A DNA stretch of 41,585 nucleotides, from IMG/VR virus record IMGVR_UViG_3300037605_000066, positions 1 to 41,585 of that record, one strand, 5' to 3'. The position numbers and the translations under genes are program-made. Origin of the DNA: a virus (Duplodnaviria; Caudoviricetes). The notes under the pieces were generated by a model. It searched no databases, was not told where the DNA came from, and was given only the letters and a program-made list of their open reading frames with translations. The stretch's first letter is position 1. Each line of letters opens with the position of its first letter. This document shows, in pieces, positions 1-31,986 of the stretch.

Positions 1-1143
1 TTACTTTTCGGTTTCGTCGCGTTCTTTTTGAATGGCGTTGAGTTGTTCTTGCAGCTCGCGGATCTGTCGATCCTTGTCGGATTCGGCGCGTCCTTTGATC
101 AGATCGGTTTTATTTTTTAGTACCTGGTGGTAGTAGCGACGGATGATTTCGGGAGAGTTTCCGCAGAGTTTGGCGACGTCGTCGGTGGTGATTTCCTCGG
201 TGTCTAGCCAGTCAGTGATGAGCGATCGGCGGAGGTCGTGGAGGGGGTCGCCTTTGATGACTTTGGCGCGGCGGTAGATGTTGGTGAGGACGGATCGGCC
301 GGAGTCTTTGTTGCCGCCGCCTTGGAGGTAGCTGATTGAGAATCCAACGACGCGTTGTTCGCCGGGTCGGGCGGCTTCGTGGCGGTCGAGCAGGATCTTG
401 TAGAGCTCGGGGCTGATGGGTACGGATCGTTCTTTGTCTTTGGTGGTGATTTTGCCGGCGGTGTTGCGAACGATGAAGAGGCGTTGGTCGAAGTCGACGT
501 CGATCCATTGGAGTCGGAGGGCTTCTTTCATGCGGAGGCCGGCGAAGCGGGCGAGTGCGATAAGGGTTTGCCATTTGATGGATGGGCAGGCGGCGAGGAG
601 GCGATCGACTTCTTTTTGGGGAACGTATCGCCAATCGGCGTCGATGCGCAGGGGTGAGCCGGGCTGATCTTCGAAGGGGTTGCTGGGGATGATGCGTTGT
701 TTGGCGGCGGTGCGGAAGAGGGCTTTGCAGTTGCGGATGTGCTTGCGCGTCGTGTTTTCGCTGATGTCGCGTTTGCGAAGTTCGGCGCGGAAGTCGGCGG
801 CGTCGTCGGGTCCGATCTTGTTGATGCGGACGTTGCCGAAGCGCTTGGTGAGAAGTCGGGTGGTGACTTCGTATTCGGCGATGGTTGATTTTTTGAGGTC
901 GCGCTGGGCGACGAATCGCTTCAGCCAGGCTTCGATTTTGGGGGTGGCGTTGGAGCCTGCGATTTCGCCGGCCTCGGCGAGCTCGACCTGGATGGCGGCG
1001 GCGCGGCGGCGGGCTTCGCGGATGCCGACTTTGTTGATGTGGCCTAGTGATCGTTTGCGTCGTTTGCCGGTGGTGGATTGCCAGACGGCGTAGCGGTATT
1101 GTTGGCCGGGGCCTCCGAGCTCGAGTCGGACTTGGGTGGGCAT
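1..1143 (-). CDS. int: Tyrosine recombinase / phage integrase
   Basis: AGLRMKE (R), TTKDKER (K), HDLRR (HxxR), LCGNS (N at the usual H/W position), RRYY (Y); arm-binding-like N-terminus and SAM-like core. Confidence 0.95.
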   Translation of the reverse strand: MPTQVRLELGGPGQQYRYAVWQSTTGKRRKRSLGHINKVGIREARRRAAAIQVELAEAGEIAGSNATPKIEAWLKRFVAQRDLKKSTIAEYEVTTRLLTKRFGNVRINKIGPDDAADFRAELRKRDISENTTRKHIRNCKALFRTAAKQRIIPSNPFEDQPGSPLRIDADWRYVPQKEVDRLLAACPSIKWQTLIALARFAGLRMKEALRLQWIDVDFDQRLFIVRNTAGKITTKDKERSVPISPELYKILLDRHEAARPGEQRVVGFSISYLQGGGNKDSGRSVLTNIYRRAKVIKGDPLHDLRRSLITDWLDTEEITTDDVAKLCGNSPEIIRRYYHQVLKNKTDLIKGRAESDKDRQIRELQEQLNAIQKERDETEK

Positions 1144-1253
1144 GGTGGGTGTGGGGTTGGGGTGAGGGGGAGTGCTAAGCCGCGAGCGGCGGGGCGCGAT
1201 GAATCGCGGCGGTTGATGGTGAGGTTATCAGGCCGGATTGTTTGGGCCAAGGG

Positions 1254-1281
1254 TTGAATTGTGTACGGCTTTCGTTAGGAT
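1254..1281 (+). promoter_or_regulatory. Putative sigma70 promoter of the metallopeptidase gene
   Basis: TTGAAT (1254-1259), 16 nt, TAGGAT (1276-1281); GGGAG precedes ATG 1312. Confidence 0.45.
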
Positions 1282-1311
1282 AGCGTGCGACGATGTTTCG
1301 GGAGTTATGTG

Positions 1312-1959
1312 ATGCGATTTAACTTGCCTGATGGCGTGTATAAGGCTGAGGTTGCGGCGGAGCCGTTGTTGAATGATGAGGGTGAGGCGCTGGACGGTGT
1401 GACGGATTACAGCGCCAAGCGGATTCAGGTGAGCCCGGGTTGTTTGCTGGGCGATCGGCCTCGGACGGTGTATCACGAGTATGCTCATCCGTGGATTGCC
1501 TGGGCGGGGTTGCCTCGGACGGAGGAGCAGTTTTGCGATTTGTTTGCTCGGATGGCGGAGAGCCTGATGGGTGATGTGATGCGTCAGGGCGGGCCTGACG
1601 CGGTGTTGTTGATGGATCTGGTGCCTGAGGCGCGGTTTGATGCGGCGTGCCTGGTGTTGACGCTGGCGGAGCTGGGTGAGGAAAAGCTGGTGCAGTGCGG
1701 GCGGTGCACGCAGCGGATAGGCGGGGGGAGCGTGTGTGTGAGTCCGCCACGGCATTCGCCGGAGGTTGGGGGGTTGGTGGTGGAGCTGGCGTTTTATTGT
1801 GAGAGCTGCGATCGGGTTCAGCGTTGGACGGAGTTTGCGAGCAAGACGGGTCGGCCGACGGGTGCGATGGCGAGTAAGCCGGTGTTTTTAGGGGGTGCGG
1901 AGCGGGATGGGTTTTTGGCGGAGCATGGGGGGAAGGTGGGTTGTGTGGTTAGGGATTGA
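1312..1959 (+). CDS. ImmA/IrrE-like Zn metallopeptidase with C-terminal Zn finger (candidate antirepressor)
   Basis: HEYAH (HExxH) followed by EEQFCD; CGRC...CESC; adjacent to integrase. Confidence 0.7.
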   Translation: MRFNLPDGVYKAEVAAEPLLNDEGEALDGVTDYSAKRIQVSPGCLLGDRPRTVYHEYAHPWIAWAGLPRTEEQFCDLFARMAESLMGDVMRQGGPDAVLLMDLVPEARFDAACLVLTLAELGEEKLVQCGRCTQRIGGGSVCVSPPRHSPEVGGLVVELAFYCESCDRVQRWTEFASKTGRPTGAMASKPVFLGGAERDGFLAEHGGKVGCVVRD

Positions 1960-2090
1960 CCCGCGGAAGTGTGGGGGAGTGCTAAGCCGCGAGCGGCGGG
2001 CCATTTTCGTGGGGTCGGGAAAATGGTGGTGCGAGCATTTTGCGCGGGTTGGCAAAATGGTTTGGGGCGCGATGAATCGCGGGGGTTCAT

Positions 2091-2774
2091 CTACTCGGAT
2101 TCTTCAGTTCGTTTTTTCCATTCGGCGCGTAGAGTGTTGAGTTCTTTTATTGCCGTGGGGATGGCGTCGTATCGGATTGCGTGAACGCTGGCGTATTCTT
2201 CGCCGGGTGAGACGATAAATAGGCCATCGGTTGAGGGATAAGTGCCTTTGACGGTTTCAGATTTTCTGTGTTTATTGGCGATCCATATGAAGCCCGATTC
2301 TTTTGAAACGACATAATTGCCTTCGCGTACAAAGTAGATGAGTTTATAGATCGAGCTGTGATCGTTGAGGCTTGTTTTGTGAATGTATTCTCCACCATGC
2401 GGAAACTTTTGCTTAGGATCGATGACGCCAATGGCTCCGACCTCTTTAGAAAACAGGATGTTCGGCATGACGAAGTAGGTGCCTTGCTCGATTTTGGTTT
2501 TGCGTTCTTTTAGTTCTTCGTACCATGCTCGGGCGTTGTCGAGTTGTTCGCGCTTTCGTTCGGCGGGCAGTTTCTTATTGCGTTGTAGATCGCGGATGCG
2601 ATCGCGGGCCTCGCGTATCTTTTCAGGGATGGCTTCGTAGTGTTCTTCAGTGATCTTGGCTTCGTGTTCAAAAAATGCATCCCAATCGTCGTCGCTTATT
2701 TCGGAGTTATTGCCCTGAGCGGTCGTGGATGAAGCCAGCAGGAGGACTACGATGATGGTGAGGAGGTGTTTCAT
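2091..2774 (-). CDS. Secreted hypothetical protein (moron-like)
   Basis: Signal peptide MKHLLTIIVVLLLASSTTA-Q, coiled-coil middle, lower GC than flanks. Confidence 0.8.
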   Translation of the reverse strand: MKHLLTIIVVLLLASSTTAQGNNSEISDDDWDAFFEHEAKITEEHYEAIPEKIREARDRIRDLQRNKKLPAERKREQLDNARAWYEELKERKTKIEQGTYFVMPNILFSKEVGAIGVIDPKQKFPHGGEYIHKTSLNDHSSIYKLIYFVREGNYVVSKESGFIWIANKHRKSETVKGTYPSTDGLFIVSPGEEYASVHAIRYDAIPTAIKELNTLRAEWKKRTEESE

Positions 2775-2802
2775 ATTTAGCCTCGGAAGGAAGGTGGTTT
2801 GA

Positions 2803-3072
2803 TTGTATTGTCCGCGGTGTGGTTATGACGTTCGTGCGAGTCAGGAGCGGTGCCCGGAGTGTGGGTATGAGTGGTATTGGTCGGATCAGGTTGGGCCGGT
2901 GGAGCGGCCGGGGGATGCTCGGTGGTTTGTGATCCGCGCGGCGTCGGCGGGGCCGAAGCCGCGGGCTTTTGGGGTTAGGGGTTTTTGCCGCCGCGGGATT
3001 CGTCTTGTCCGCGTTTTTTGGCGGCGCGTTTTCGGGGTTTGGTGCCTGGGGAGGTTTTGGGGCGGGGGGTGA
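2803..3072 (+). CDS. Short Zn-ribbon ORF, possibly a fragment
   Basis: CPRCGYDVRASQERCPECG after GGAAGG and a TTG start; the 3' part overlaps the opposite-strand gene and looks non-coding. Confidence 0.4.
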   Translation: MYCPRCGYDVRASQERCPECGYEWYWSDQVGPVERPGDARWFVIRAASAGPKPRAFGVRGFCRRGIRLVRVFWRRVFGVWCLGRFWGGG

Positions 3073-3361
3073 TGGGGAAGGTGGTGGGTTGATCGGACCC
3101 GCCCGCTGAAGCGGGCTCCGCCTGGGCCATGCGTTCGAGGATCAGGCGGGCGAAGTCTGGGCGGCGCGAAGCGGGGACGGCGCCGAGGATCGCGCCTTGG
3201 GTGTCCTGGTCGAGTGTGCCGAACCATACGAGGATCTGATTGACGGCGGATTTTTTGTTGTGTGGGGACCAGTCGACTGCGCGTTCGATGATGGTGTGCG
3301 TTTCATCGGTAAGCTCGATGGTCGCGGCGCGTTTTGGTTTTTTGTTGGACGGCACAGACAT
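2975..3361 (-). CDS. Putative repressor / DNA-binding regulator
   Basis: Divergent from the 3480 HTH gene across an AT-rich palindromic spacer; strand-helix-helix-like N-terminus; ATG 3361 preceded by AGAGAG. Confidence 0.55.
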   Translation of the reverse strand: MSVPSNKKPKRAATIELTDETHTIIERAVDWSPHNKKSAVNQILVWFGTLDQDTQGAILGAVPASRRPDFARLILERMAQAEPASAGGSDQPTTFPITPRPKTSPGTKPRKRAAKKRGQDESRGGKNP

Positions 3362-3479
3362 ATTCTCTCTTTTTTTTACAGCACGTAAAGCGTTGCTGTT
3401 TTTAGGCTTACGTTTTTCTCGCGTTATGAACGCGAGATCACGTGTTGACACCGGGTTTTAACTAGTTATTCTTTGCGTC
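3362..3479. promoter_or_regulatory. Divergent lysis/lysogeny control region with rightward promoter and operator-like palindromes
   Basis: TTGACA 3445-3450, 16 nt, TATTCT 3467-3472; perfect inverted repeat TCTCGCGTT-atg-AACGCGAGA 3417-3437; palindrome TAACTAGTTA 3459-3468; AT-rich. Confidence 0.75.
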
Positions 3480-3758
3480 ATGGATACGACTTCATTGCAT
3501 TTGAGTCCGAGTCAGGCGGCGGTTTTGGACATTTACCGGCGTTTGGATCGTGTGGGTTTGGGGTCGACGGCGACTTACGACGTTGTTGCGGTGCATGGTC
3601 AGATCAACAAGTCGATGGCGGCGAAGGTTGCGGGCGAGCTCGAGGAGCTTGGCCTGTTGGCTTGCGGCGAATCGACAGGTGGCCGGACCAAGCGGAGCAA
3701 GGTGCTGACGGAGGCGGGGCGGAGCTATAGCCCGCCGGCGATGCCGCAGGCTGGTTGA
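3480..3758 (+). CDS. Winged-HTH regulator in the Cro position
   Basis: LSPSQAAVL...INKSMAAKVAGELEELGLL winged-helix pattern; first gene of the rightward early unit. Confidence 0.7.
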   Translation: MDTTSLHLSPSQAAVLDIYRRLDRVGLGSTATYDVVAVHGQINKSMAAKVAGELEELGLLACGESTGGRTKRSKVLTEAGRSYSPPAMPQAG

Positions 3759-4139
3759 TCGCGGTGGGGTGGGTTTTTGACCCGCCCGCTGAAGCGGGCT
3801 CCGCCTGGTTGGTTGTCGGGATTGTGGGCGGTCCTTGCCCGGTGTGATTCTATCAGAAGTGGCCTATTTTTCGCATGAAAACGCCGATTTTTGACAAATT
3901 GAATACAGGGTCGCCCCGGCACTTGGAAGCTGGAGCAGGATGCGGTGTGGCGTTTGGGAAGACGGCCACGGCTGGCTCGCGTTGTGGTGACGCGGTTGGG
4001 GCGGCCCCCGGAAGGTTAGTCGCGGATTGGCCGCGTCCGTTTGGCGTGGCTTGCGGGGTTGATGTGTTGGGTTGTCATCCCGCTGAAGCGGGGTGGCCGG
4101 TTGAAGAGGGTGCAGGCTTAGAGGATTTGGTTTTGTTGA

Positions 4140-4211
4140 TGCGGGGTAGCTCAGTGGTAGAGCAGGGGATTCATAATCCTCCGGTCGCCGGTTCGAGTCC
4201 GGCCCCCGCCA
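4140..4211 (+). tRNA. tRNA with CAT anticodon (Met or Ile2)
   Basis: Cloverleaf: acceptor tGCGGGG/CCCCGCc, D arm GCTC-AGTGGTA-GAGC, anticodon arm GGGGA-TTCATAA-TCCTC, T arm GCCGG-TTCGAGT-CCGGC, discriminator A; 1:72 mismatch; no encoded CCA. Confidence 0.92.
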
Positions 4212-4332
4212 TTTTGGACGCGTGCGAACTGGAGCGAGCCAGCAAATGTAGAGCTTGCCGTAACAGCTGGGTTGATCGCCAGTTCACTCGGTTAAAGCTG
4301 GCCGCGCGTTCTTTTGATTTTGCCCCCGGAAG

Positions 4333-4372
4333 CTCGGAGCGCCCGCGTTTGTCGCGGGCCTCCGGGTTTTTT
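4333..4372 (+). terminator. Intrinsic terminator after the tRNA region
   Basis: CTCGGAG-c-GCCCGCG-tttgt-CGCGGGC-CTCCGGG followed by T6. Confidence 0.75.
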
Positions 4373-4476
4373 CGTTGGGTTAGGTATGAGTTGGGCGTTT
4401 TACTCGCGGCCTTGGGTTGGTTTTTTGCGCTGACGGTTGATGGGTGGTTTGGCCGGGATGTTGGGGGGGGAGATCG

Positions 4477-4590
4477 ATGAGTCGTGATTCTGGGTCGGAG
4501 AATGTGGTGGGGACGTTGGTTGTGTCTGTGCTGGTCTTTCTGGCGCTTGGTTGGCCGTGGGTGGTGTTGGTGATTGGGGGTTTGTTTTGA
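4477..4590 (+). CDS. 37-aa membrane peptide (absent from the ORF track)
   Basis: MSRDSGSENVVGTLVVSVLVFLALGWPWVVLVIGGLF; GGGAG upstream; stop overlaps the TTG start of the next gene. Confidence 0.55.
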   Translation: MSRDSGSENVVGTLVVSVLVFLALGWPWVVLVIGGLF

Positions 4591-5015
4591 GTCGCGTGCA
4601 ACTGACGGATCGGCAGGCGGAGGTTTATCGATACATCGTTGAGGGTGTGTCGGCGGGTTTGCCGCCGAAGCTGCGTGAGATCGGTGCGGTGCTGGGGATC
4701 TCGAAGGTGACGGTGCGTGGGCATGTTGATCAGTTGGTGATGAAGGGTTATGTGTCGCGTCGTGCGGAGAGTATGCGTGGGTTGTCGTTGGTTGAGCCGG
4801 TGGACGGTCGGTATGCGTCGGTGAAGGGTGATGCGGATGACCTGGCGGATGACCTGGCGGAGGCGTTGCGTGAGGTGCTGATGTTGCCGGTGGATCAGGG
4901 GATGAAGTGCATGGTGATTCGGGAGTCGAGCCCGGTGCTTGCGCGTGCTCATGCGGCGTTGTCGGCGTATGACGCGGGGCGTGCTAAGCCGCGAGCGGCT
5001 GGGGGTGTGGCATGA
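4587..5015 (+). CDS. LexA-type DNA-binding-domain protein without peptidase domain
   Basis: LTDRQAEVYRYI...PPKLREIGAVLGISKVTVRGHVDQLVMKGYVSR matches the LexA N-terminal wHTH. Confidence 0.85.
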   Translation: MSRVQLTDRQAEVYRYIVEGVSAGLPPKLREIGAVLGISKVTVRGHVDQLVMKGYVSRRAESMRGLSLVEPVDGRYASVKGDADDLADDLAEALREVLMLPVDQGMKCMVIRESSPVLARAHAALSAYDAGRAKPRAAGGVA

Positions 5016-5284
5016 GTCGGACGGGTGGCCCTGGTGGTGTGACGGTGTTGAGTGATCCTCGGCTGAATGGTCGGTTGGATCGTGCGCGTGAGATTTACTT
5101 TCGGCATTCTGGGCGGAAGGGTGATCGGAAGAGCGTGGCTGAGGCGCTGCTGGCGGAGAAGCTGGCGGAGTTGGAGGCGGCGGGTTGGTTTGATGATCCG
5201 GATCGGGTGGAGGGGTTGTTGGATGAGGGTGCTAAGCCGCAAGCGGCGGGGACGTTGAGTTATAGATTTCCGGGGGTGGGTTGA
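5012..5284 (+). CDS. Hypothetical protein
   Basis: ATGA-coupled to the upstream gene; normal codon pattern. Confidence 0.7.
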   Translation: MSRTGGPGGVTVLSDPRLNGRLDRAREIYFRHSGRKGDRKSVAEALLAEKLAELEAAGWFDDPDRVEGLLDEGAKPQAAGTLSYRFPGVG

Positions 5285-5300
5285 TGGATTGTTTTCTCCT

Positions 5301-5467
5301 TCAGGTGGCCGGCGGCGATGCGTCGTCGGTCGCTGATTACATACGTCGGGTGTGGGGCCAACGCGGACGGCTTGGCTTTGCTCGGCGGCATGCAGGGATG
5401 CGAGCGGCGTATCGGTCGGAGGTTTTTAACCCGGCTGCCTGGCTGAGAGGCTGGGCCTGCTGTTTTT
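5301..5467 (+). ncRNA. Candidate structured small RNA with an antisense loop
   Basis: Consecutive G-U-containing hairpins at 5301-5336, 5344-5387 (loop CGCGGACGGC) and 5397-5413, then a terminator-like hairpin plus T5 at 5432-5467; intergenic. Confidence 0.55.
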
Positions 5468-5494
5468 GATTCTTTAACGCGGTGAGGTGTTGCG

Positions 5495-5704
5495 ATGTTG
5501 AATGAACGATTGATTGATCGGGTTGATGTTGGGATGGGTGATCGGCACGCGGCGACTCGTGCGCGGCGGGACATCGATGATCGGCTGGCGGCGGGTGTCG
5601 CGCAGGCGGCGATCGAGTCGGGCGAGTTGGATGAGCCTGAGGTGTTGGATGCGGTGGTGCCTGGTCTTTATGCGGATCTTGGGATGTGTGACATGGCGGG
5701 GTGA
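5495..5704 (+). CDS. Hypothetical protein
   Basis: GAGGT RBS, ATG start, plausible composition. Confidence 0.65.
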   Translation: MLNERLIDRVDVGMGDRHAATRARRDIDDRLAAGVAQAAIESGELDEPEVLDAVVPGLYADLGMCDMAG

Positions 5705-5796
5705 TGGACCCGCCCGCTGAAGCGGGCTTTGCCTGGAGTTTTTTGGTTTTGGATGAGTGGAGAGAGAAGGTGCGTTTTGCGCTTTGGAGTTTTTGC

Positions 5797-6279
5797 ATGG
5801 ATGTGATGAATCGCGAGTTTTGGCAGGTGGTGAGCGCGGACGGTGCCCGGTGGTGGGTGGATAGCGCTTCGGCCGCGGCGTTGGCGGCGGACCGTGGGTG
5901 CGAGGTTCGTTTGGTGAGTGCGGTTGAGGCGGCGTTGGGTTTGGCGTATTGGCGTTTGTGCGTGCCGGCCTGGGTGGTTCGTCGTGGGATTCGTAAGGCG
6001 GGCGGTAGTCAGGCGCGGGCGCTGGTGTGTATGTGCCTGCGGCAGTTGGGGATGAGCGAGCGTGAGATTGCGGAGGCGCTCGAGTTGGCGGCGAGCTCGG
6101 TGCATGAGTTGATGGATGCGTATTTTGAGGATCGGGAGGTGGTTGAGGCGTTGGGGGTTTGGGGTTCGGCGCGCTCGGAAACTTTGTTTGTTGAGTTTAT
6201 TGAGCGAGCGGACGCGGGAATTGAACCTGGAATTGGTGCGGGAAGTGCTAAGCCGCGAGCGGCGGGGGTGGTGGGATGA
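5797..6279 (+). CDS. HTH DNA-binding protein
   Basis: LRQLGMSEREIAEALELAASSVHEL HTH; GGAG before ATG 5797. Confidence 0.7.
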   Translation: MDVMNREFWQVVSADGARWWVDSASAAALAADRGCEVRLVSAVEAALGLAYWRLCVPAWVVRRGIRKAGGSQARALVCMCLRQLGMSEREIAEALELAASSVHELMDAYFEDREVVEALGVWGSARSETLFVEFIERADAGIEPGIGAGSAKPRAAGVVG

Positions 6280-6662
6280 GCGGTGTTGTGGGTCAGGGAA
6301 TTAGTTTTTGGCCGGAGTTGCATTGGGTGGTTTGGCCTCGTGGTGAGGCTTTGCCGGGCCGGTTTGATGTTGTTCGTGTGGCGTATCGCATGGCGGGATT
6401 GGATTATGAATCGGAGGCGGATCGCTCGTTGGTGAAGCGTTCGCGGGCGACGTACAAGCCGATTTTGTTGATGGCGGCGGTGCCTGTGTTGGTTCGGGTG
6501 TGTGGGTGTTCGGGTAAGGAGGCGGTGGGGGTGTTTGGGTTTTCGCGGCACCTGGTGCGTGGTGATGCGTTGATGGGTTTGTTGGATTGTCCGGCGTGTC
6601 GGTTGTTGACGCGTGATTTGATCTTTCGGATGACGGGTCGTTTGTCTGGGGGTGGGCGATGA
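6276..6662 (+). CDS. Hypothetical protein
   Basis: ATGA-coupled on both sides. Confidence 0.7.
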   Translation: MSGVVGQGISFWPELHWVVWPRGEALPGRFDVVRVAYRMAGLDYESEADRSLVKRSRATYKPILLMAAVPVLVRVCGCSGKEAVGVFGFSRHLVRGDALMGLLDCPACRLLTRDLIFRMTGRLSGGGR

Positions 6663-7816
6663 GTCAGGTTGAGGCATGGAAGCCGGCGGTTGTTGGGGGG
6701 TTTGATCGGTTGGCTTGGCGGCGGTCGCTGCGGGGGTCGGCTGCGCTGCGGGGGTTGTCGGGGAGCGAGTGGGCGGTTTTGTGGTTCGCTTATGACCATT
6801 CGGATGGGATGGGGCAGGTGGACTTGCCTAAGCGGTACCTGGCGGAGTCGATGGGGATCTCGGAGGCGTCGGTGAAGCGGGCGGTGCGGCGGCTGAGCGG
6901 CGTGGTGGGTTTGCTGGAGGAGATTGGGCGGCGCCCGGGTTCGAAGGCGAAGCGGTATCGGTTGAGTGAGCCGGGGTGTGTTGAGGTTGAGGCGACTTCT
7001 GCGGCGTGCGAGGGTTCGCGCGATGAAGCTGGGTCGTGGCGGATTGATGGGGGGGAAAGTGCTAAGCCGCGAGCGGCTGGTGAGGGGGTCATGGGTGATC
7101 CCCCTGGCGGTGCAAGGGGGTCATGGGTGACCCGGCAAGGGGGTCATGGGTGCGCCCCTAAGGGGGTCATGGGTGACCCCCAAAGCAGAGACAAAAGCAG
7201 AGAACAAAGCAGCAAGCCCCCCGGAAGTTTGACGGGTCAGCGTGATCAAGCGGGCGGGTTGTTCGATGAGCGAGGCTTTGATCGTGCTGCTGCTGCGATT
7301 TTGATTTCGTCGGGATTGCGGAACCCGAAGCGTGCGGCGGCGTTGGTGGCTCAGCACAAGGTGACGCGGTTGGAGGCTCGGAATATCCGGGCGAATTTGC
7401 GGGCGGCTCGGCGGGCGAAGGTGTCGGTGCGGAACGCTGCGGGTTGGGTGGTTTCGATGGTGCAGGCGGGCGAGGTGACGCTGGATCAGCGGGTGCTGGA
7501 TGAGGTGGAAGGTCGACGGATGCAGCGTCGTCGGCGTTTGCAGGCGGCGGAGCGGGCGGTTGAGGCTCGTGCTAAGCGGCAAGCCGCGGAGCGAGATGAT
7601 GAGCGGCGAGAGGCGGCGCGTGAGCGGTTGAAGGCGATGGGGGCGGATGAGCGTTCGGCGTTGGTGCGAGCGATCACGGCGGAGATGAGCGGTGGGGATG
7701 GGCAGTTGGCGTTTAAGCCGTCGGCGGCGCTGTTGGAGCGTTGGTTGATTGATGAGTTGATGAAGCGTGATCAGAACGAAAGCGACTCGGAAAGTGAGGC
7801 AAGCGATGGCGAATGA
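6659..7816 (+). CDS. Replication initiator (lambda O-like organisation)
   Basis: N-terminal wHTH (LSGSEWAVLWF...YLAESMGISEASVKRAVRRL), internal iterons, VRNAAGWV motif in the C-terminal part. Confidence 0.8.
   Translation: MSQVEAWKPAVVGGFDRLAWRRSLRGSAALRGLSGSEWAVLWFAYDHSDGMGQVDLPKRYLAESMGISEASVKRAVRRLSGVVGLLEEIGRRPGSKAKRYRLSEPGCVEVEATSAACEGSRDEAGSWRIDGGESAKPRAAGEGVMGDPPGGARGSWVTRQGGHGCAPKGVMGDPQSRDKSREQSSKPPGSLTGQRDQAGGLFDERGFDRAAAAILISSGLRNPKRAAALVAQHKVTRLEARNIRANLRAARRAKVSVRNAAGWVVSMVQAGEVTLDQRVLDEVEGRRMQRRRRLQAAERAVEARAKRQAAERDDERREAARERLKAMGADERSALVRAITAEMSGGDGQLAFKPSAALLERWLIDELMKRDQNESDSESEASDGE
7083..7216 (+). repeat. Putative replication origin: four iterons plus A-rich tract
   Basis: AGGGGGTCATGGGTG at 7083, 7115, 7138, 7161, then an A-rich tract 7181-7216 with AAAGCAG x3. 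Confidence 0.8.
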
Positions 7817-8198
7817 TGTTGTGCGGGTGATTGAGTATGGGACGCGGGAGCTGTTGGCGTCGTATCGGTCGAAGGTTTGCCCGATGTGTGGGGGGACGAA
7901 GGCGAAGAAGCGGAGCATGTGCGGGGGGTGTTATTCGTTGCTTTGTCCGGCGTTGAAGTCGGCTTGTTACAAGCGGTTTCGGGAGGGGTATGAGGAGGCG
8001 ATTCGGGACAGTGCGGATTTTTTGGGTGTGTCGGCGTTGTGTTTGCCGGCGGATGTGTCGCGGCGGCGTGGGGCGGTTGATGAGGATGGGGTAGGCACCG
8101 ATCCCGCAGAAGCGGGACGGCCTGGGCCTGATGTGATGCGTGGGGTGCTGGGTTTGGATGCGGATGTGTTGGAGCGTGAAGTGAAGGGAGGTGCGTGA
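7806..8198 (+). CDS. Zn-finger hypothetical protein
   Basis: CPMC...CGGC; overlaps the initiator stop. Confidence 0.7.
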   Translation: MANDVVRVIEYGTRELLASYRSKVCPMCGGTKAKKRSMCGGCYSLLCPALKSACYKRFREGYEEAIRDSADFLGVSALCLPADVSRRRGAVDEDGVGTDPAEAGRPGPDVMRGVLGLDADVLEREVKGGA

Positions 8199-8563
8199 TG
8201 GTGGGTTTGTTTGATCGAGTTGGGCGGGATCGGATCGCGGAGCAGTTCGAGGTGTTTGATCGGGCGCATCCGGAGGTGTATCTGGCGTTTAAGCGGTACG
8301 CGCTGGAGCTGTACCAGGCGGGCCGGCGGAGGGGGTCGGCTCGGGATGTGCTGGGGCGGGTGCGTTGGGAGACGGCGGTGAATCCGCGGTACCAGGCGAA
8401 CGGGGAGTTCAAGGTGAACAACAATTTTGCGGCGGTGATGGCTCGGAAGGTGATGGAGGAGGAGCCGGGGTTGGCGGGGTTTTTTGAGACGAGGGAGCGG
8501 AAGAGTGTGGCCCCCGGAAGTGGTGCAAGTGCTAAGCCGCGAGCGGCGGGAGGTGGGGTATGA
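8195..8563 (+). CDS. Phage hypothetical protein
   Basis: FDRAHPEVY...RVRWE...FKVNNNF pattern; coupled start and stop. Confidence 0.75.
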   Translation: MMVGLFDRVGRDRIAEQFEVFDRAHPEVYLAFKRYALELYQAGRRRGSARDVLGRVRWETAVNPRYQANGEFKVNNNFAAVMARKVMEEEPGLAGFFETRERKSVAPGSGASAKPRAAGGGV

Positions 8564-9840
8564 GTAGTGCGATTGAATGGACTGAAGAAACGTGGAATCC
8601 GGTGGTGGGGTGTAGTTTTGCGAGCGAGGGTTGCCGTAACTGTTATGCGGTGGGTATGACGCATCGGCTGGGTTCGATGGCGTTGGCTGATATAGACAAA
8701 GGCAAAGACCCAGGTAAAAAAGGCGACTACGTTGCGCTTACCGTGAAAAACAGTCGAGGTGTGCGTCATTTCAACGGGCAGGTGCGAACGATTGACTCGG
8801 CGTTGTCGGTGCCGCTGAGGCGCAAGACGCCGACGCGGTACTTCGTGAACAGCATGGCGGATTTGTTTCACCCGAAGGTGCCGTTTGATTTCATCGACAA
8901 GGTGTTTGCGGTGATGGCGTTGTGTCCGCAGCACACGTTTCAGGTGTTGACGAAGCGGCCGGAGCGGATGGCGGAATACACAAATGAGCTTTACTCGGGT
9001 CAGAGAAGCATCGGCGACGCTTCGGATGGAATGTGGAGCAGCATGATGGCATCGCGTCTACAGGTCGCCGCTGCATTTGGTGTAAAGCCTGGTGGCGGTG
9101 TTGGCATCAGGACCGATCACCCATTGAAAAACGTCTGGCTCGGCACGTCGGTCGAGGACCAGGCGACTGCGGATGAGCGCATCCCGCACCTGCTTCGATG
9201 CCCGGCGGCGGTACGGTGGTTGTCGTGTGAGCCGCTGCTGGGGGCGGTGGATATTACTTGCGGGCTTCCGCATTACAAGTGCGACGCCGGCGAGATGGAC
9301 GCGATCTACCACGGCGAGCGCTGTAAGACAGACGATTGCGGATGGCGAGGTCTTGAGCATCCGGACAAACAGCGGAGGATTGAGACGACGACACCAGGCG
9401 GTATCGAGTCGGGGCTATGTCGATGCTTGCAGGCTGGCGTGGATCGGATCTATGGCGGCGTTGATTGGGTCGTAGCCGGCGGCGAGTCGGGCAAGGGCGC
9501 GAGGCCGATGCACCCTGATTGGGCTCGATCGCTACGGGATCAGTGCCAGGCGGCCGGCGTGCCGTTCTTCTTTAAGCAGTGGGGCCATTGGGTGCCATAC
9601 GAGCAAAGCGCTCAGGCTCCGATGCTGATCGGGCAGGATGGGCGCGAGGTCGATGGGCACGCGATCCCGCCTGATTGCGTGGATCAAGTGAATCAAGAAG
9701 TTGGCGGTTGGATGATGGACGATCAGTGCGATGTGTATCGGCGTGTTTATAAGAAGGCCGCGGGGCGGTTGTTGGATGGGGTGGAGCACAATGAGTACCC
9801 GGCCGCTGAAGCGGCCTCGGCCGTGGGAGATAAGGGATGA
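8560..9840 (+). CDS. Phage Gp37/Gp68 family (DUF5131) protein
   Basis: IEWTEETWNPVVGC...GCRNCYA, FVNSMADLFH, FQVLTKRPERM, NVWLGTSVE, DWVVAGGESG, FFFKQWG. Confidence 0.93.
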   Translation: MSSAIEWTEETWNPVVGCSFASEGCRNCYAVGMTHRLGSMALADIDKGKDPGKKGDYVALTVKNSRGVRHFNGQVRTIDSALSVPLRRKTPTRYFVNSMADLFHPKVPFDFIDKVFAVMALCPQHTFQVLTKRPERMAEYTNELYSGQRSIGDASDGMWSSMMASRLQVAAAFGVKPGGGVGIRTDHPLKNVWLGTSVEDQATADERIPHLLRCPAAVRWLSCEPLLGAVDITCGLPHYKCDAGEMDAIYHGERCKTDDCGWRGLEHPDKQRRIETTTPGGIESGLCRCLQAGVDRIYGGVDWVVAGGESGKGARPMHPDWARSLRDQCQAAGVPFFFKQWGHWVPYEQSAQAPMLIGQDGREVDGHAIPPDCVDQVNQEVGGWMMDDQCDVYRRVYKKAAGRLLDGVEHNEYPAAEAASAVGDKG

Positions 9841-10181
9841 ACCAACTCGGCTTGTTTGGTGATGTTCCGAGTCAGCGGTGGGATCGCGTGTTTTATTACG
9901 GCGGGATTGTTCAGCTTCGGATTGATCATCGGCACTTGATGTACATGATTGATATTCAAGCTGTCGGGCTGTCTCACAAGCCGCGATATGAGGTGCAGTT
10001 GCGGCGGTGGAATAATAAAAAGTACACGCTTCGAACCAGTGCGCGCGGGTTCAAGTCTTGGCGGCGGTTGTTTAAAACATTGCCCGAGGCGGATCAGCTG
10101 GCGGCGCGGTTGGAGGCGTTGTTGAAGAGTCGGCGGGCGCGACGAGTCGCGGCGCTTCGTGGTGAGAGGGTTGGGGTATGA
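9837..10181 (+). CDS. Hypothetical basic protein
   Basis: ATGA-coupled; MNQLGLFG start. Confidence 0.7.
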   Translation: MNQLGLFGDVPSQRWDRVFYYGGIVQLRIDHRHLMYMIDIQAVGLSHKPRYEVQLRRWNNKKYTLRTSARGFKSWRRLFKTLPEADQLAARLEALLKSRRARRVAALRGERVGV

Positions 10182-10702
10182 CGGAGCGGGAGATTCAGAA
10201 TGCTTTTGCGCGTCGGCGGACGGCGTGGGGGTTGTTGTTGCCGAATTACACGCCGGGGGATTGGTATGAGTGTGATTTGTTTGCGGTGACGAAGGCCGGG
10301 TATTTGGTTGAGCATGAGATCAAGTTGACGGTCGCGGACTTTAAGGCGGATGAGAAGAAGGGTCGGCCGGCGCGGCGGTACGCTCGGGCGAGTGCGCGGA
10401 ATCCGATTGTTGAGACGAAGCATGAGCGGCTGGCGGCGCGGGATGAATCGGGCCCGAGTCGGTTTAATTACATCGTGCCGCGCGGCCTGGTTTCGGTTGA
10501 TGATGTGCCGGAGTGGGCGGGGTTGATCTATGCGGATGTGCACCTGGATTACCCGTCGAAGGGCCGGCGATGGATTTGGTTTGAGGATGTGAAGGCCGCG
10601 CCGCGATTGCACAAGGTGAAGGTGACGGAGGCGGTGATGAAGCACGCGAAGGGCGTTTGTTATTACCGGTATTGGAATGAGCGATTGCGGGGTGTGGCAT
10701 GA
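10178..10702 (+). CDS. PD-(D/E)xK nuclease-like (MmcB-like) protein
   Basis: ECDLFAV...EHEIKLTVADFKAD...FNYIVP...PEWAGLI. Confidence 0.75.
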   Translation: MTEREIQNAFARRRTAWGLLLPNYTPGDWYECDLFAVTKAGYLVEHEIKLTVADFKADEKKGRPARRYARASARNPIVETKHERLAARDESGPSRFNYIVPRGLVSVDDVPEWAGLIYADVHLDYPSKGRRWIWFEDVKAAPRLHKVKVTEAVMKHAKGVCYYRYWNERLRGVA

Positions 10703-11574
10703 GCGAGGCGGTGATGAGGGTGAATGCGTTGGCGCAGTGGTTCGGGTCGAATCGGGCGTTGGCGGAGCGGGTGGGTGTGGAGCTGGGGCGGCTTTCGTGG
10801 TGTGGTGTGCCGTTCATGGGTGGGGCTTGTGAGTTGCCTTTTATTGATTGTCGGCAGGGTGTGGCGAATGATATGCATGCGCACGTGGTGAATCTGGCGC
10901 GGGTGGTGGCGGATCCGGCGTTGAAGGGTCGGCTGGCGTCGCGGGTGGAGGGGTTGTTGTTTCACCCGGCGGAGTTGGCGTTGGCTCAGTCGCGTTGTAT
11001 CGATCGGGATGCGGATGCGAATGGTGGTTTGTTTGTCGATGTGCGGCCGGCGCGGCCCGATGTGGCGAGCGTGGAGTGGGCGGCGGACTACCTGGTGTGT
11101 TCGTGGTTTGGGCGAGGGGGGCTGAGCGGGACGCGGGGAGAGTTTCGGCAGAAGGTGAGTGCGCGGTATAGCCCTGAGGGTGGGGGGAGCGGCCGACGGT
11201 GGCGGTCGGCGGTGGAGTCGCTGGACGCGTGGCATGCGGCGCTGAAGGGTTGGGAGTTTGAGCAGGAGGACGGGCTGGTGTTTCTAGACAAGGTGCACGA
11301 TCGGCCTGGGGTGGGGCTGTACGTGGATGCGCCTTGGCCTGAGGATGGGGATGGGTATGTGCACCGGTTCACGGAGCGGCACCAGCGGGTGCTGGCGGCG
11401 AAGCTGAACGGGTTTGAGCATGTGAAGGTGGTGGTGCGGTATGGGGATCATCCGTTGATTCGGGAGCTATACCAGCCGGCGGATGGTTGGCGGTGGATTG
11501 AGCAGGGGAGTAAGGACATGCATGGGGGTGAGGTGGAGGAGGTTTTGATTGTGAAGAGTAGGGAGGCGGATTGA
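10699..11574 (+). CDS. Dam-like (D12 class) DNA adenine methyltransferase
   Basis: WFGS, PFMGGA (motif I), NDMHAHVVN, LYVDAPW (DPPY position), EVLIV C-terminus. Confidence 0.8.
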   Translation: MSEAVMRVNALAQWFGSNRALAERVGVELGRLSWCGVPFMGGACELPFIDCRQGVANDMHAHVVNLARVVADPALKGRLASRVEGLLFHPAELALAQSRCIDRDADANGGLFVDVRPARPDVASVEWAADYLVCSWFGRGGLSGTRGEFRQKVSARYSPEGGGSGRRWRSAVESLDAWHAALKGWEFEQEDGLVFLDKVHDRPGVGLYVDAPWPEDGDGYVHRFTERHQRVLAAKLNGFEHVKVVVRYGDHPLIRELYQPADGWRWIEQGSKDMHGGEVEEVLIVKSREAD

Positions 11575-12020
11575 TGTATTTGGGTGGTTCGGTGCGTCGG
11601 GCGGATCGTCGGTTTGAGGATTGGCACGCGGAGGGGTTTGAGCGGTTTGGAATCTTCCCGATGCGTTGGTTTTGGTGTCCGAAGTGTGGTCTGGTGCACA
11701 CGCCGGCGCACGCGGCGGGGGTCGGGGTTGAGGATGATCGACAGGGGTGCGTGTGTCCGGAGAGGTTGGGCGGGTGTGGGTTTCCGTGGTTTGGTTGCCG
11801 GGATGTGGGCGAGTATTACCGTCGGTTTATGACGCCGCGGATTGATGCGGATGGGATGGTTTCGATCGCGAAGGATGGTGATCGGGTTGCGTTTCGCGTG
11901 TTGCCATACTGTCCGGTGGGTTTTGAGCCGGGCGAGGGGAGTGGTCCGGTTTGTTTGTTGGGTGTGGCGTCGGCTAATCGCGATGAACCGCGGCGGTTGA
12001 CTCGTGGGGGTGGATCGTGA
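11574..12020 (+). CDS. Cys-rich hypothetical protein
   Basis: CPKC, CVCP, GGCG; coupled on both sides. Confidence 0.65.
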   Translation: MYLGGSVRRADRRFEDWHAEGFERFGIFPMRWFWCPKCGLVHTPAHAAGVGVEDDRQGCVCPERLGGCGFPWFGCRDVGEYYRRFMTPRIDADGMVSIAKDGDRVAFRVLPYCPVGFEPGEGSGPVCLLGVASANRDEPRRLTRGGGS

Positions 12021-12613
12021 GGGTGTTGGCGCTTGATCCGAGTTCGTCGTGTACGGGGTATGCGGTGTTGGAGGGTTTGTTGCCTGGGGAGTTGTTGGAG
12101 GGGGGATTGTTGAAGCCGAGCGATTCGAAGTATGTCTGGGCAGGTAGCGCGGAGGCGTCGTTGTCGGATGTGTCGGCGTGGCTTGGCTCGGGTGAGTTGG
12201 CGGCTTATCGTCGAGTGATTGAGACGTTGGAGGATGTGCGTGAGTTGGTTGAGCGGGTGAAGCCTGATCGTGTGGTGTTGGAGGTGCCGAGCGGAAAGGT
12301 GGGGACGGGAGCGCGGCGTGGTGCGCGTGGATCGCTGACGACGTATGGGATGGCTGCGGGCGCGGTGTGGTCGGTGTGTCGGGAGCTGGCCCCCGGAATT
12401 GGTGCGGCGGTGATCCCGGTGACGGAGCGGCAGTGGACAAAGGATGCGGGGAGCAAGGCGAAGCGGGTTGCGCTGGTGAAGTCGGTGTATGGTCGGCGGT
12501 ATGACGCGTCGGCGGATGATGGTATGGATACGGCGGATGCGATCGGGCTGGGGAGGTGGTATTGGCGTCGGTGTTTTGAGGGTGGGGTTGTTTCGAGGCG
12601 TTTAGCCGAGTAG
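12017..12613 (+). CDS. RuvC-like Holliday junction resolvase
   Basis: RVLALDPSSSCTGYAV, VVLEVP, DTADAIGL acidic catalytic motifs. Confidence 0.85.
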   Translation: MRVLALDPSSSCTGYAVLEGLLPGELLEGGLLKPSDSKYVWAGSAEASLSDVSAWLGSGELAAYRRVIETLEDVRELVERVKPDRVVLEVPSGKVGTGARRGARGSLTTYGMAAGAVWSVCRELAPGIGAAVIPVTERQWTKDAGSKAKRVALVKSVYGRRYDASADDGMDTADAIGLGRWYWRRCFEGGVVSRRLAE

Positions 12614-12653
12614 GATTCGTGAGCAGACGCCGTCCGCGTAGTGAGGCGGTCGC
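12588..12653 (+). promoter_or_regulatory. Putative late promoter and conserved leader, copy 1
   Basis: TTGTTT-N17-TAGGAT, then ACGCCGTCCGCGT (12627-12639)-N5-GGCGG-N4-GTG start. Confidence 0.6.
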
Positions 12654-13100
12654 GTGTCTACATTGATTTCAGGTGATGCGACGTTTGAGTCGTCGGGCTC
12701 GGTTTGGGGCCCGGTGGGGATTTGTCTTGCGCACACGGGACCGACGAGCGCGACGGTGTTGACGGATGTTGAGCTTTTTGGTGTGACGATTCCGGCGGGT
12801 TATGACACGGATGGTGCGAGTGTTCCGCGTGCGTTTTACAACGTGATTGCGCGTTTTACTGATGCGCTGCCGGCGGCGCTGGTGCATGATTTTCGTTATG
12901 ACCCTTGGCCTGATGCGGATGGGGTGAAGCGTCGGGTGATGACGCGTGGCGAGGCGGATCGTGAGTTTCTTCGGAATTTGCGGGCGAGTGGTTTGAGCCG
13001 GCGTCGGTCGTGGTTGGCGTATAGCGCGGTGCGCGCGGCGGGTTGGCGTGCTTGGAATGCTGGCACGTCGCGCGGGACGTTGAATATAGGAGAGGTGTGA
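12654..13100 (+). CDS. DUF1353-like phage protein
   Basis: IPAGYDTDGASVPR, AALVHDFRY, RGEADREF, AYSAVRAAG. Confidence 0.85.
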   Translation: MSTLISGDATFESSGSVWGPVGICLAHTGPTSATVLTDVELFGVTIPAGYDTDGASVPRAFYNVIARFTDALPAALVHDFRYDPWPDADGVKRRVMTRGEADREFLRNLRASGLSRRRSWLAYSAVRAAGWRAWNAGTSRGTLNIGEV

Positions 13101-13387
13101 TGACGCGATCGTTTTTTGAAAACGCGATTGTTGCGGTGTTGCTTGGTTTGGCGGTGCTGATGATGTGCGTTGGTTGCTCGGTGAAGCAGGCGGAGGTGAT
13201 CAAGCCGGATGGGACGGTGGTTCGTGTGACGATCAATTCAATTCTGACGAGCGAGCGTAGCGAGGGGTTGAGCTACGGGCGGGTGGATGGCGAGGTGATG
13301 TTGGAGCTGGGGCCGATGGGTGCTGATCCGGAGGCGGAGCAGTTGGGGGCGATTTTGGGTGCGGCGATCAAGGAAGCGACGCGATAG
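13100..13387 (+). CDS. Putative lipoprotein
   Basis: Hydrophobic signal ending in CVGC lipobox; GAGG RBS. Confidence 0.7.
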   Translation: MTRSFFENAIVAVLLGLAVLMMCVGCSVKQAEVIKPDGTVVRVTINSILTSERSEGLSYGRVDGEVMLELGPMGADPEAEQLGAILGAAIKEATR

Positions 13388-13402
13388 CAGGGACGCGAGG
13401 TG

Positions 13403-13425
13403 CGGGCAGGGATGCCCGATTTTTT
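13403..13425 (+). terminator. Terminator-like hairpin abutting the next start codon
   Basis: CGGGCA-ggga-TGCCCG-A-T6 directly before ATG 13426. Confidence 0.45.
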
Positions 13426-14022
13426 ATGACGATTGAAGCCGTTATTGAGTTGGTCGTTGTGACGATTGTTGGCGTGTTGACCGTGACAACGGCCGGCGTT
13501 TATGCGGTTCGAAAACATTGGGAGAGTTTTCGCGATGTGATGTTGCAGGATGCGAAGTCTGTGCAGCGAAAGATTGAATCGACGACGGCGGTGATGAATG
13601 GGGCGCTTCAGGATTTTTGCGAGCCGCTGGATTACCCGTGTTGGTACAAGCTGGCGGAGTATCAGGAAGACGGGACCGTTGTTTTTTACATGCAGTATTT
13701 GAACGCTGCGTATGAACGGGAGTTTGGTAAGCCGCGCGATGAGTATGTGGGCCAGACAGATTTTCAGGTTTGGCCGCGTGAGATTGCGGAGGTGTTTTTT
13801 GCTCACGATGCTTCGGTTTTGGCGAGCGGTAAGCAGACGCGGTTCGTTGAGCAGGTGCCGGTGAATATCAACAATCCGTCGGGTCCGAAGGTCGCGCGGG
13901 AGTTTGATAAGTGGATCATCAAGCGCAATGGCAAGGTGGGCATTGCGGGGATGATGCGGCCGGTGATTGCTGAGGTGATTGTGGATGATGATGGTCAGAT
14001 CAATGGAGATGGCGATGCGTAA
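13426..14022 (+). CDS. Membrane-anchored PAS-fold protein
   Basis: One N-terminal TM helix; YLNAAYEREFGKPRDEYVGQTDFQVWPREIAEVFFAHDASVL is a PAS_4-type signature. Confidence 0.8.
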   Translation: MTIEAVIELVVVTIVGVLTVTTAGVYAVRKHWESFRDVMLQDAKSVQRKIESTTAVMNGALQDFCEPLDYPCWYKLAEYQEDGTVVFYMQYLNAAYEREFGKPRDEYVGQTDFQVWPREIAEVFFAHDASVLASGKQTRFVEQVPVNINNPSGPKVAREFDKWIIKRNGKVGIAGMMRPVIAEVIVDDDGQINGDGDA

Positions 14023-19300: not shown

Positions 19301-19419
19301 TGGTGAGTGGTGTGCGTGGGCCTTGGGTTGAGGCGGCGGCGGTGGTGACGGATGCGGTTGGGCCGGCGGTGCCTGATATTGATGAGGCGAGCTTGCCGGA
19401 GGGTTGTGGGTGTGATTAG
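16309..19419 (+). CDS. Large beta-rich protein (Asp-box/BNR, lectin-like and FN3-like domains)
   Basis: SQDDGVTW and YSPDGRRF Asp-boxes; YQFGVSAVNEYG and FAVRASDG FN3-like motifs; no signal peptide. Confidence 0.7.
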   Translation: MTFKSLSFDGGVFSGRLSDPTFSRATASVNADGSTSAANAVRIGKPTLIADAPEFSRDIATASNHRFMAAGLSRDNVTRVRGLFEAASGELQIFIDDDLTPTRTIDCLRADDGDEDLAANLSGVTRKANTRYVPRVMKICSGYMAVACRRDVDTNSDASNRAWSARGVSVLVSQDDGVTWSFLQHVDDGDDPAGEAGANGLGRLNVWALSLSPLEVVDGIVRKIGVNLVDYQVGATRDGLQLFFAEVSRSTDTGSYTERDLVTVLSITGGDAVFHGHSAYSFTSGGDVHLLYVTGDTIGNQSVAVQVFSLATYDTALSTTRTLLHGGSTDQGDAARSGNQSIGFVPGPDDFTALSGVDDACGGIQLFRYDPSGPSLEIETVYGLGSVDRTDLIVTQIDCFDEGRRAHYVARVHPVGATSSWHDELASRIVYSPDGRRFAAVLARSSDDADSNPGPCATDGVKLFVGNGPSVGDGVYSADVPRTRLVKPALLAGGGRNYADGTATPVGPTNDNTVTVQSRSGGEVVDPRTSLPFDEQPPALGQVIRYEFAGNVVSTKRMRLTGTTVPSGRVTARVWLRSLVPGTMFLQTRLAGNDGTQRNGVLRNVDIPQSDSWTPLIVEDDLSAATGNMLIELFVSQFAAGPADFLVVVEYIRIGGAELGYATAEGTTSADDEFLSVGVDTFDEASLVAVMPMPAEGWDATRDASAAGTTVPVLTWRQDATNYIALSYELDTKTLEAVMVEGGSTLGTASAACFPLRDDVVRVGLVLTASGLTLHAFVGGGPVVSATVTAANGLNGKLDEVWLNRDAAGTGYGSVGVSDLILEGVAYAASDVASARGWCGRPPGLYLFDQSGGDELASLALPGAGGAFSFDVAGLGLSAGSYQFGVSAVNEYGCESERALISVEIDAGGDLAALIDAREVRAEALAGGSVAVSWEAFASIAEASTRTEPAEYEIAETGDLSSVLATVAWNPTRYHRGELGPYADGLTKTFAVRASDGVVSGVRGPWVEAAAVVTDAVGPAVPDIDEASLPEGCGCD

Positions 19420-19524
19420 TGGGGTTGTGCTAAGCCGCAAGCGGCTGAGTGTGGATCCGCCCGCTGAAGCGGGCTCCGCCTGGGTGCGGTTTTTGATGGT
19501 TTGTGGTGATGGTGGACAAGGAAG

Positions 19525-19580: not shown

Positions 19581-19609
19581 ACTTTATGAAGGTATCAGGT
19601 GGTGGTGGC

Positions 19610-31953: not shown

Positions 31954-31986
31954 TAAACACCACCGGCGCGAAAGCGCCACACCGCG

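Follow-up and report, generated by a model that had tools for sequence, protein, structure and literature searches.

Textbook accounts of temperate phages assign the late-gene switch to proteins (Q, Mu C, P2 Ogr), and lambdoid late control is built from the promoter pR′, the terminator tR′, the 6S RNA, and the antiterminator Q. Among RNAs, DsrA and RprA act on rpoS as anti-antisense translational activators. Lambda PreS, acting on dnaN, is described as an activator of that type (bioRxiv 10.1101/2024.10.31.621285). IsrK, of the Salmonella prophage Gifsy-1, is portrayed as an RNA that works in trans to make the RBS of an inactive phage mRNA accessible, with lytic consequences, and CI, in the same source, as an RNA that causes termination and keeps lysogeny (PMC4825925). 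C4 is described as having three stem-loops and two pairing loops, and as occluding an RBS and keeping lysogeny (PMC5320573). In the literature that we searched (mostly open papers in their main texts, including a 2025 review of phage small RNAs, PMC12197685), we found no case of a phage RNA acting as a translational activator for the virion operons of its own phage.

Here, we describe a candidate for such a system in an uncultured, temperate, lambda-like phage. On the evidence of sequence comparison, four elements in each genome are real, conserved, and co-varying, which is more than the initial annotation had seen: the leaders of two late operons (L1 and L2) and two hairpins, A in the early region and B at the 3′ end of the first late operon. 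We lean, somewhat beyond an even call, toward a reading in which A and B would be trans-acting RNAs that open the late leaders and activate their translation in place of a Q protein, while RNA-RNA pairing in one direction or the other appears probable. By analogy, the mode of action resembles activation of the IsrK type, and the elements do not appear to be members of the C4/CI group. As with C4 and CI in the accounts cited above, a phage-made structured RNA has a loop that co-varies with its targets between related phages, but the comparison drawn by the initial annotation is loose; C4 and CI repress, whereas here one loop pairs with the anti-RBS arm and activation is predicted. Hairpins A and B each hold one contiguous pairing segment of 11 to 14 nt and lack the three stem-loops of C4 with its two pairing loops (a′ and b′). 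Rfam returned only a tRNA for the whole window at the gathering score, the tRNA plus one chance-level CRISPR repeat match for positions 3000–6000 at E up to 5, and nothing credible for stretches of a related record, G001. With IsrK, as described, the candidate shares a prophage RNA acting in trans on a translationally inactive phage mRNA; IsrK is said there to target the long form of its own transcript and to work via the Q-like AntQ, whereas here two RNAs would target distant late leaders and Q was not found. As in the accounts of DsrA, RprA, and PreS, pairing with the anti-RBS arm of a leader would expose the RBS; those RNAs are described as Hfq-dependent and as acting on host mRNAs, whereas here the phage's own virion operons would be targeted by a guide at a hairpin tip, with no known chaperone.

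The DNA analyzed, hereafter the window, is the whole virus record of 41,585 nt. It carries an integrase gene (1–1143), a tRNA-Met (4140–4211), and early and replication genes up to a gene for a RuvC-like resolvase (12017–12613). Late operon 1 (12654–19419, + strand) runs from a DUF1353 gene to the gene for a 1046-aa protein with a weak match to tail-fibre protein J and ends just 5′ of hairpin B. A block of ParB-like, GNAT, DUF932, and terminase genes separates it from late operon 2 (27471–41585, + strand; syntenic in G001), with genes for a gpW-like adaptor, portal, protease-capsid fusion, decoration, neck, tape measure, and tail proteins. A single 841-aa ORF (29428–31953) joins the head protease to the major capsid protein, as it also does in G001 and in the fragment L034, and the third gene of late operon 1 (13426–14022) has a PAS_4 fold match (E 4e-6) that is odd for a late phage gene. 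A Phycisphaerae bacterium is the probable host, judging from matches to Planctomycetota MAGs and from a dispersed 17-nt repeat: The only two genome matches in the RuvC alignment were both Planctomycetota MAGs, and the repeat was found in 37 of 401 genomes of the Phycisphaerae class, with a maximum of 89 copies in one. The + strand shows a strong G and T skew (G skew 0.2–0.5), which favors G-rich complements and G-U-compatible differences.

Directly ahead of both leaders lie predicted sigma70-like promoters that the initial annotation had missed. P-L1 (12588–12616, + strand; TTGTTT-17-TAGGAT), within the 3′ end of the RuvC gene, was read from the sequence by eye, being too weak for detection in our consensus promoter scan; the same position in G001 reads TTGCGT-17-TAGGTT. 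P-L2 (27407–27435, + strand; TTGACA-17-GATACT), a 10/12 match to consensus, was found by the scan and has the counterparts TTGACA-17-CATACT in L034 and TTGACA-17-CATAGT in G001. The leaders that follow have a common 13-mer (12627–12639 and 27444–27456). In the L1 hairpin (12623–12659, + strand), the motif (12627–12639) forms the 5′ arm and loop, and the 3′ arm has a GAGG and the GTG start codon of the DUF1353 gene (12654); in the L2 hairpin (27442–27473, + strand), the motif spans 27444–27458, and the 3′ arm covers the initiation region of the gene for the gpW-like head-tail adaptor (GTG 27471). Both folds had been proposed before and hold up (z −2.4 and −3.5); in each, the motif makes up the 5′ arm and loop, opposite a 3′ arm that contains RBS-like purines. 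The L2 promoter and hairpin are kept in L034 and G001, with CCGCGTTCT of the L2 leader invariant in all three sequences. The L1 promoter is kept in G001, where the hairpin is different and stronger and covers GAGGTG and the GTG (z −5.0). A fold over RBS and start codon is predicted in all five leaders, four of which were checked against shuffles. The first-gene initiation regions of L1 and L2 ranked second and third hardest to open among 37 window starts tested, some of them taken from a simple gene caller, and both G001 counterparts likewise ranked second and third among 45. The need for pairing with the RBS accounts for part of the leader motif. Counting pairs across the three L2 leaders proved uninformative (162 of 500 shuffles scored as high; the G001 stem is register-shifted) and was set aside.

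The late region resembles lambdoid control in having a host-type late promoter after a RuvC-type gene and a lock within the first 30 to 40 nt, and differs from it in that the lock lies over a start codon, appears to lack a U-tract, and occurs at two promoters, and in that Q was not found. Lambdoid phages keep Q at the very place where, in both the window and G001, the RuvC gene runs into P-L1. As the initial annotation had noted, no Q-like or other late activator is recognizable among the window ORFs scanned with PHROGs (56), Pfam (46 and 7), and NCBIfam (23); a highly divergent activator may lie elsewhere. A lock and a key are needed because the late promoters look host-readable and neither Q nor another activator was found. 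A further sequence, TTTAGCCG, lies within the spacer of three of the four late promoters (window 12601; G001 2740 and 30587) and once more at window 22815, 5′ of a promoter-like site at 22841; it could be a protein site usable by a late regulator.

Hairpin A (5344–5387, + strand), the candidate early activator RNA, was defined by folding and by its G001 counterpart and carries an antisense segment at 5360–5371. It sits in a multi-hairpin noncoding element (5301–5467, + strand; z −3.1 on the + strand, 0.7 on the − strand) that also contains an upstream hairpin (about 5301–5336), a four-way junction (about 5390–5461), and a terminator-like hairpin (5437–5456) with a U-rich tail. Refolding reproduced hairpin A on the + strand (z −2.98, with 1 of 200 shuffles as stable; minus strand z 0.1). 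The 10-nt loop first ascribed to it is an idealization, since ViennaRNA predicts a 5-nt apical loop, GGACG, closed by a weak 2-bp helix next to a bulged C, and 10 nt are free only with that helix open. The description of the element as ending in a terminator stands in that 5437–5456 is terminator-like, but the U-tail is interrupted, and the call alone means little because 25 such sites occur in the window versus 20.5 in shuffles. The likely source of an A-bearing transcript is an early rightward promoter found by the scan (3445–3472, + strand; TTGACA-16-TATTCT), the sole promoter-like match in positions 1–14000; as 3.0 are expected there in shuffles, its role is read from its position. We found no promoter belonging to hairpin A or B itself.

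The exact complementarity that drew attention to hairpin A is present as first reported: 5360–5371 is the reverse complement of 27446–27457 in L2 over 12 nt, and 5361–5371 that of 12629–12639 in L1 over 11 nt. The accompanying caution also proved well placed, in that coding sites near 10216 (11 to 12 nt) and 27843 (11 nt) match over equal lengths. Given these sites, the G skew, and Markov models of order 2 to 5, which predict 0.63–1.0 such 11-mers per genome, the A match alone is not significant. By raw duplex energy, the A site ranks sixth in the genome, and some coding sites pair as well as A and B or better. The match does not exceed chance genome-wide; it does so only by its position (about 0.003–0.005 such matches are expected in this 210-nt intergenic stretch, a post hoc figure) and by the relative G001. 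Among the coding look-alikes, 27843 is altered in L034 and 21760 in G001, and the gene holding 10216 has no match in G001. A third noncoding site (32345) is the stem of a hairpin, and no counterpart was seen in G001.

This relative is a syntenic record of 42,395 nt (57% identity to the window in the portal, 52% in RuvC), rated 64% complete by CheckV though covering the same gene blocks. It is the main support for the reading; the observation in the window alone is weak. In its early region, an intergenic hairpin A (about 19632–19674, site 19651–19661) carries at its tip 11 nt that are exactly complementary to the L1 of this phage, and of all Watson-Crick matches to the L1 arm in the record this is the longest. 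Relative to the window, the GG of the A loop has become AA and the CC of leader L1 has become TT, i.e., two compensatory changes from G-C to A-U. The chance of such a match in the 320-nt interval is about 1e-4 to 4e-4 in register and 1e-3 to 3e-3 in any register. Loop and leader therefore covary in a relative, in what is a single comparison because the data comprise two near-complete genomes and one 7.8-kb fragment (L034). A DNA sequencing run that may be the source of the window showed no variants at A, B, or the leaders. The proposal of one early RNA for both leaders holds in the window and is limited to it, because G001 A has two A-C mismatches with G001 L2 (net +0.4, outside the best 7 of 231 sites) and fits L1 only. 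Whether the two A hairpins are orthologous is uncertain on sequence grounds. Within the G001 early region, the best alignment of window 5340–5470 is with the A region (score 54, 0 of 300 shuffles), though that of its motif-free part is not significant (20 of 300). Window 5286–5480 also aligns to G001 20041–20270 (score 67, 1 of 300), where the loop lacks the motif; the two A stems have no common sequence, and the small ORFs downstream of A in the window and G001 gave no alignment.

A second partner, which the initial annotation had missed, is better conserved than A. Hairpin B (about 19524–19582, + strand), the candidate late activator RNA, lies at the 3′ end of late operon 1 and carries its antisense segment at 19551–19564 with the loop GGACG. 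An unbiased duplex scan placed it among the top 5 sites of each phage, at matching positions just downstream of the final gene in late block 1. The hairpin consists of an outer stem of 12 to 14 bp and a small inner hairpin of variable sequence (z −4.6 in the window, −3.75 in G001), with a GGRCR tip that resembles the tip of A. The window copy is homologous to G001 36460–36520 (score 47, 0 of 300 shuffles; the best tile of G001), and the fold is kept between the two while the sequence of the inner hairpin is unrelated. The G001 copy ends in a run of nine T. B pairs with all four own-phage leaders over 12 to 14 bp, all seven non-Watson-Crick cells within the four helices are G-U, and between window and G001 it shows compensatory changes relative to both L1 and L2. 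A CsrA-type reading of the GGA loops was dropped, as G001 B has no GGA.

Rank tests extended the comparison to all noncoding sites, on both strands with the leaders excluded and, for the window, with minus-strand genes missed by the caller included. In the window, B ranked first and A second for both L1 (323 sites) and L2 (318 sites). In G001, B ranked first for both L1 (233) and L2 (231), and A ranked second for L1 only; the B ranks are partly post hoc because B was found by looking in both genomes. Conversely, when the whole + strand was scanned for targets, the two leaders took the top two places for window A, window B, and G001 B, and G001 A had L1 in second place behind a coding site. The best partner of each of the four RNAs was a leader of its own phage, and seven of the eight own-phage RNA-leader pairs form 11 to 14 bp.

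A reading that we consider quite unlikely takes the motif to be an asymmetric DNA operator bound by a phage repressor, with one copy just after each late promoter and reversed copies at two further intergenic positions. The leader copies do lie 8 to 10 nt past the −10 hexamer, an operator-like position, and candidates for a small DNA-binding protein exist, namely a LexA-type HTH at 4551–5015 and an 82-aa ORF (24316–24564) that is common to G001 (32%) and ribbon-helix-helix-like by eye. Atlas, however, gave no family for the latter (best 0.89). An operator would not need a hairpin, yet all four reversed copies lie at the tips of + strand hairpins and all five forward copies in hairpins over start codons. 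We also found no minus-strand promoter-like site near A (by scan) or near B (by eye). Further, the G001 copies sort into pairs, as partners would: G001 L1 and L2 differ at two core positions, and in the core A is identical to the L1 complement over 11 nt and B to the L2 complement over 9 nt, a pattern that points to partners and not to repeated copies of a single protein site.

Pairing itself could take effect in either direction. The suggestion that a trans-acting RNA opens or blocks the late leaders is supported as to pairing by the covariation in one relative and the rank tests, and opening is the more fitting of its two halves, as the segment that pairs belongs to the arm that masks the RBS and not to the RBS. 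The roles could also be reversed: Short leader RNAs from always-on late promoters would be the regulators, and A and B the nascent-transcript targets or sponges, such that binding would favor termination before the replication genes (at A) and before the genes leading to the terminase (at B), as with P4 CI. All covariation evidence fits this arrangement equally. Hairpin A lies just before a terminator-like hairpin, and the stems of G001 A and B are followed by T runs. With its 5′ arm removed, the antisense segment of B pairs with B's own 3′ arm in both phages, and B could accordingly be a switch. The late promoter of lambdoid Stx phages reportedly yields a short regulatory RNA as well, and termination is the effect described for P4 CI (PMC4825925). 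Several features speak against the reversal, which we hold to be unlikely. A U-tract at which a short RNA could end appears to be absent from the leaders: The hairpins of G001 L2 and of both L1 leaders directly enter start codons and have none. The terminator scan did list the window L2 hairpin, with a weak tail. The leader segment is buried in a stem over the start codon in five of five cases, whereas A and B show theirs at a hairpin tip. Last, the outer stems of A and B stayed unchanged when the antisense segment was forced open, and no alternative fold was found for window A.

If A and B act as activators, host polymerase would start at P-L1 and P-L2 without an activator, and the closed leader would prevent the first gene from being translated. 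Rho polarity truncates RNA that is not translated, and the locked late transcripts would be shortened in this way. A would be made from the early transcript after induction, as it lies 1.9 kb downstream of the sole early promoter-like site (3445–3472). Either RNA would then capture the 5′ arm of a leader and free the buried start site, most likely during transcription of the leader, since pairing is about neutral to mildly favorable once both RNAs are folded. Synthesis of B, from the 3′ end of operon 1, would require read-through of that operon; B would thus appear later, reinforce L1, and open L2, which is the least certain step. This presumed order of transcription, A and then B, leads to the hypothesis of an all-RNA relay without a protein activator, in which the early RNA turns on operon 1 and the RNA from the 3′ end of operon 1 sustains that operon and unlocks the head-tail operon; we put this forward tentatively, as a rather doubtful extension. 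Should the proposal hold, an RNA key would replace a protein activator, and the 3′-end RNA would give the switch built-in timing and positive feedback. A recognizable activator is absent from many uncultured prophages, and the window and G001 supply natural compensatory variants.

The distances also permit pairing in cis, in which A and B would act only within read-through transcripts, each opening the next leader 7 to 8 kb downstream. On the same strand, L1 follows A at a distance of 7.3 kb and L2 follows B at 7.9 kb; in G001, L1 is the only leader that A fits, and L2 is the better match for B. Each leader, however, is preceded by a conserved promoter of its own, transcripts from which would not include A and B, and terminator-like sites lie in between, so we regard this arrangement as very improbable.

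Energetics is the weak point of the activation model, as far as the modeling goes. For seven of the eight own-phage pairs, the sum of duplex and opening energies was −0.8 to −7.8 kcal/mol with folded leaders and −13 to −19 with nascent leaders, loop-closure costs being ignored. ViennaRNA co-folding of the folded RNAs gave an intermolecular helix in none of the own-phage pairs printed, left the accessibility of the initiation regions unchanged, and did not open the leaders. With nascent leaders, co-folding was near zero for B and G001 A, which conflicts with the rougher sum. Opening would call for capture of the leader as it is transcribed, for ribosome trapping, or for a chaperone.

The unfavorable co-folding would suit a reading in which the leader locks are real but are opened by a phage protein of the Mu Com type or by ribosome traffic, while A and B would be nothing more than terminator or stability hairpins, their G-rich loops matching by coincidence. 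About one 11-mer match per genome is expected, the G skew is 0.2–0.5, and several small ORFs of the window encode zinc-binding proteins (2803, 7767, 11571). Com is described as activating mom translation by binding a hairpin near an inhibitory structure (PMC6483171); as there, a late gene would be held off by a translation-inhibitory leader structure, but Com is a zinc-finger protein, whereas here the evidence points to RNA partners. The zinc-binding ORFs have no tblastn match in G001 at E 1e-3, and no zinc-binding ORF common to the window and G001 was found. Chance would further have to supply four same-register matches, at the same two places in two phages, with compensatory changes. We judge this explanation to be fairly unlikely; it, the operator, and the cis pairing are all less likely than trans activation by A and B.

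The search for relatives covered several protein and DNA collections. Viral contigs with a DUF5131 protein gave 33 loci, none otherwise related; the portal search gave one locus (L034), the terminase search none, and the portal alignment L034 and G001. The RuvC alignment yielded 25 viral, 12 metagenome, and 2 genome loci, and among the 35 RuvC loci whose downstream DNA was inspected, the L1 promoter and leader were present in G001 only. DNA patterns (the L2 leader, promoter plus motif, and B) matched only in L034 and G001, and the other 42 of 44 matches to a loose promoter pattern were rejected because they have no head genes in common with the window. Portal alignment against 401, 401, 19, 92, and 251 genomes around a Phycisphaerae MAG and three further entries returned distant portals only (25–35%), and none of these genomes has a convincing leader. 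One distant prophage (G806:C45; L132 1255–1320; portal 33%, with one in-frame stop) has a gpW-like gene preceded by a promoter-like element, together with a weak hairpin in which an arm is similar to the motif; it was left out as a relative, as the partner site is absent from its 12.4-kb contig. Named phages reached a best portal identity of 27%. Closer proteins (P0002 and P0009–P0012) are encoded on contigs outside the comparison, of 29.6 kb for P0002 and 17.4 kb for P0009.

The window also contains dispersed repeats. A REP-like palindrome (GCTAAGCCGC-R-AGCGGC), whose first 10 nt are matched 23 times at up to one mismatch, occurs at 1174, 1981, 4983, 5231, 6247, 7061, 8531, 19429, 19658, 19727, 20455, 22236, 29393, 32290, 35469, and other sites, often at gene ends and sometimes in frame; it is present in 37 of 401 genomes of the class of the Phycisphaerae MAG, in up to 89 copies. 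A second dispersed hairpin repeat with a TGAA loop (CCCGCTGAAGCGGG) lies on the + strand throughout (3102, 3785, 4079, 5713, 8103, 19460, 30604, 32260, and 32830), has many copies at gene junctions in G001, and could be a boxB-like or a recombination cassette signal. Within the replication initiator gene, four repeats (AGGGGGTCATGGGTG) spaced by 23 to 32 nt (7083–7196) are likely an iteron origin.

Other small elements lie in the early regions. A hairpin 5′ of A in both phages (window 4320–4375; G001 about 19565–19625; score 55, 0 of 300 shuffles) starts with TTTTGCCCCCGGAAGC, ends in a T run, and is a candidate early terminator or nut-like site. After A, G001 19667–19749 (L077 667–749) is called a tRNA-Arg(TCG) by ARAGORN, not by Rfam; its 5′ strand overlaps the 3′ arm of G001 A, so processing could free the antisense segment. 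Release from a precursor by RNase P is a trait of the C4/CI RNAs, and A has this tRNA-like element after it in G001 and the four-way junction after it in the window. Window 5390–5445 is weakly like the 3′ half of this element (20 of 300 shuffles). Also near G001 A, a small ORF (19838–20056; L077 838–1056) weakly matches the anti-sigma factor FlgM (Pfam E 0.012, NCBIfam E 0.067); for window ORF 5495–5704, an FlgM identity is not supported, as it has no such match and does not align to the G001 ORF. The promoter at 3445–3472 is flanked by a divergent gene pair, leftward from about 3364 (ORF 2975–3451, − strand) and rightward at 3480–3758 (+ strand). The leftward product gave no family match in Pfam/NCBIfam-type profile searches; it is ribbon-helix-helix-like by eye and may be the lysogeny repressor. 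The G001 integrase lies on the + strand and gave no tblastn match to that of the window. Between it and the last tail gene, G001 about 17560–17625 resembles by eye the 3′ half of a tRNA-Ala gene and is a likely attP core.
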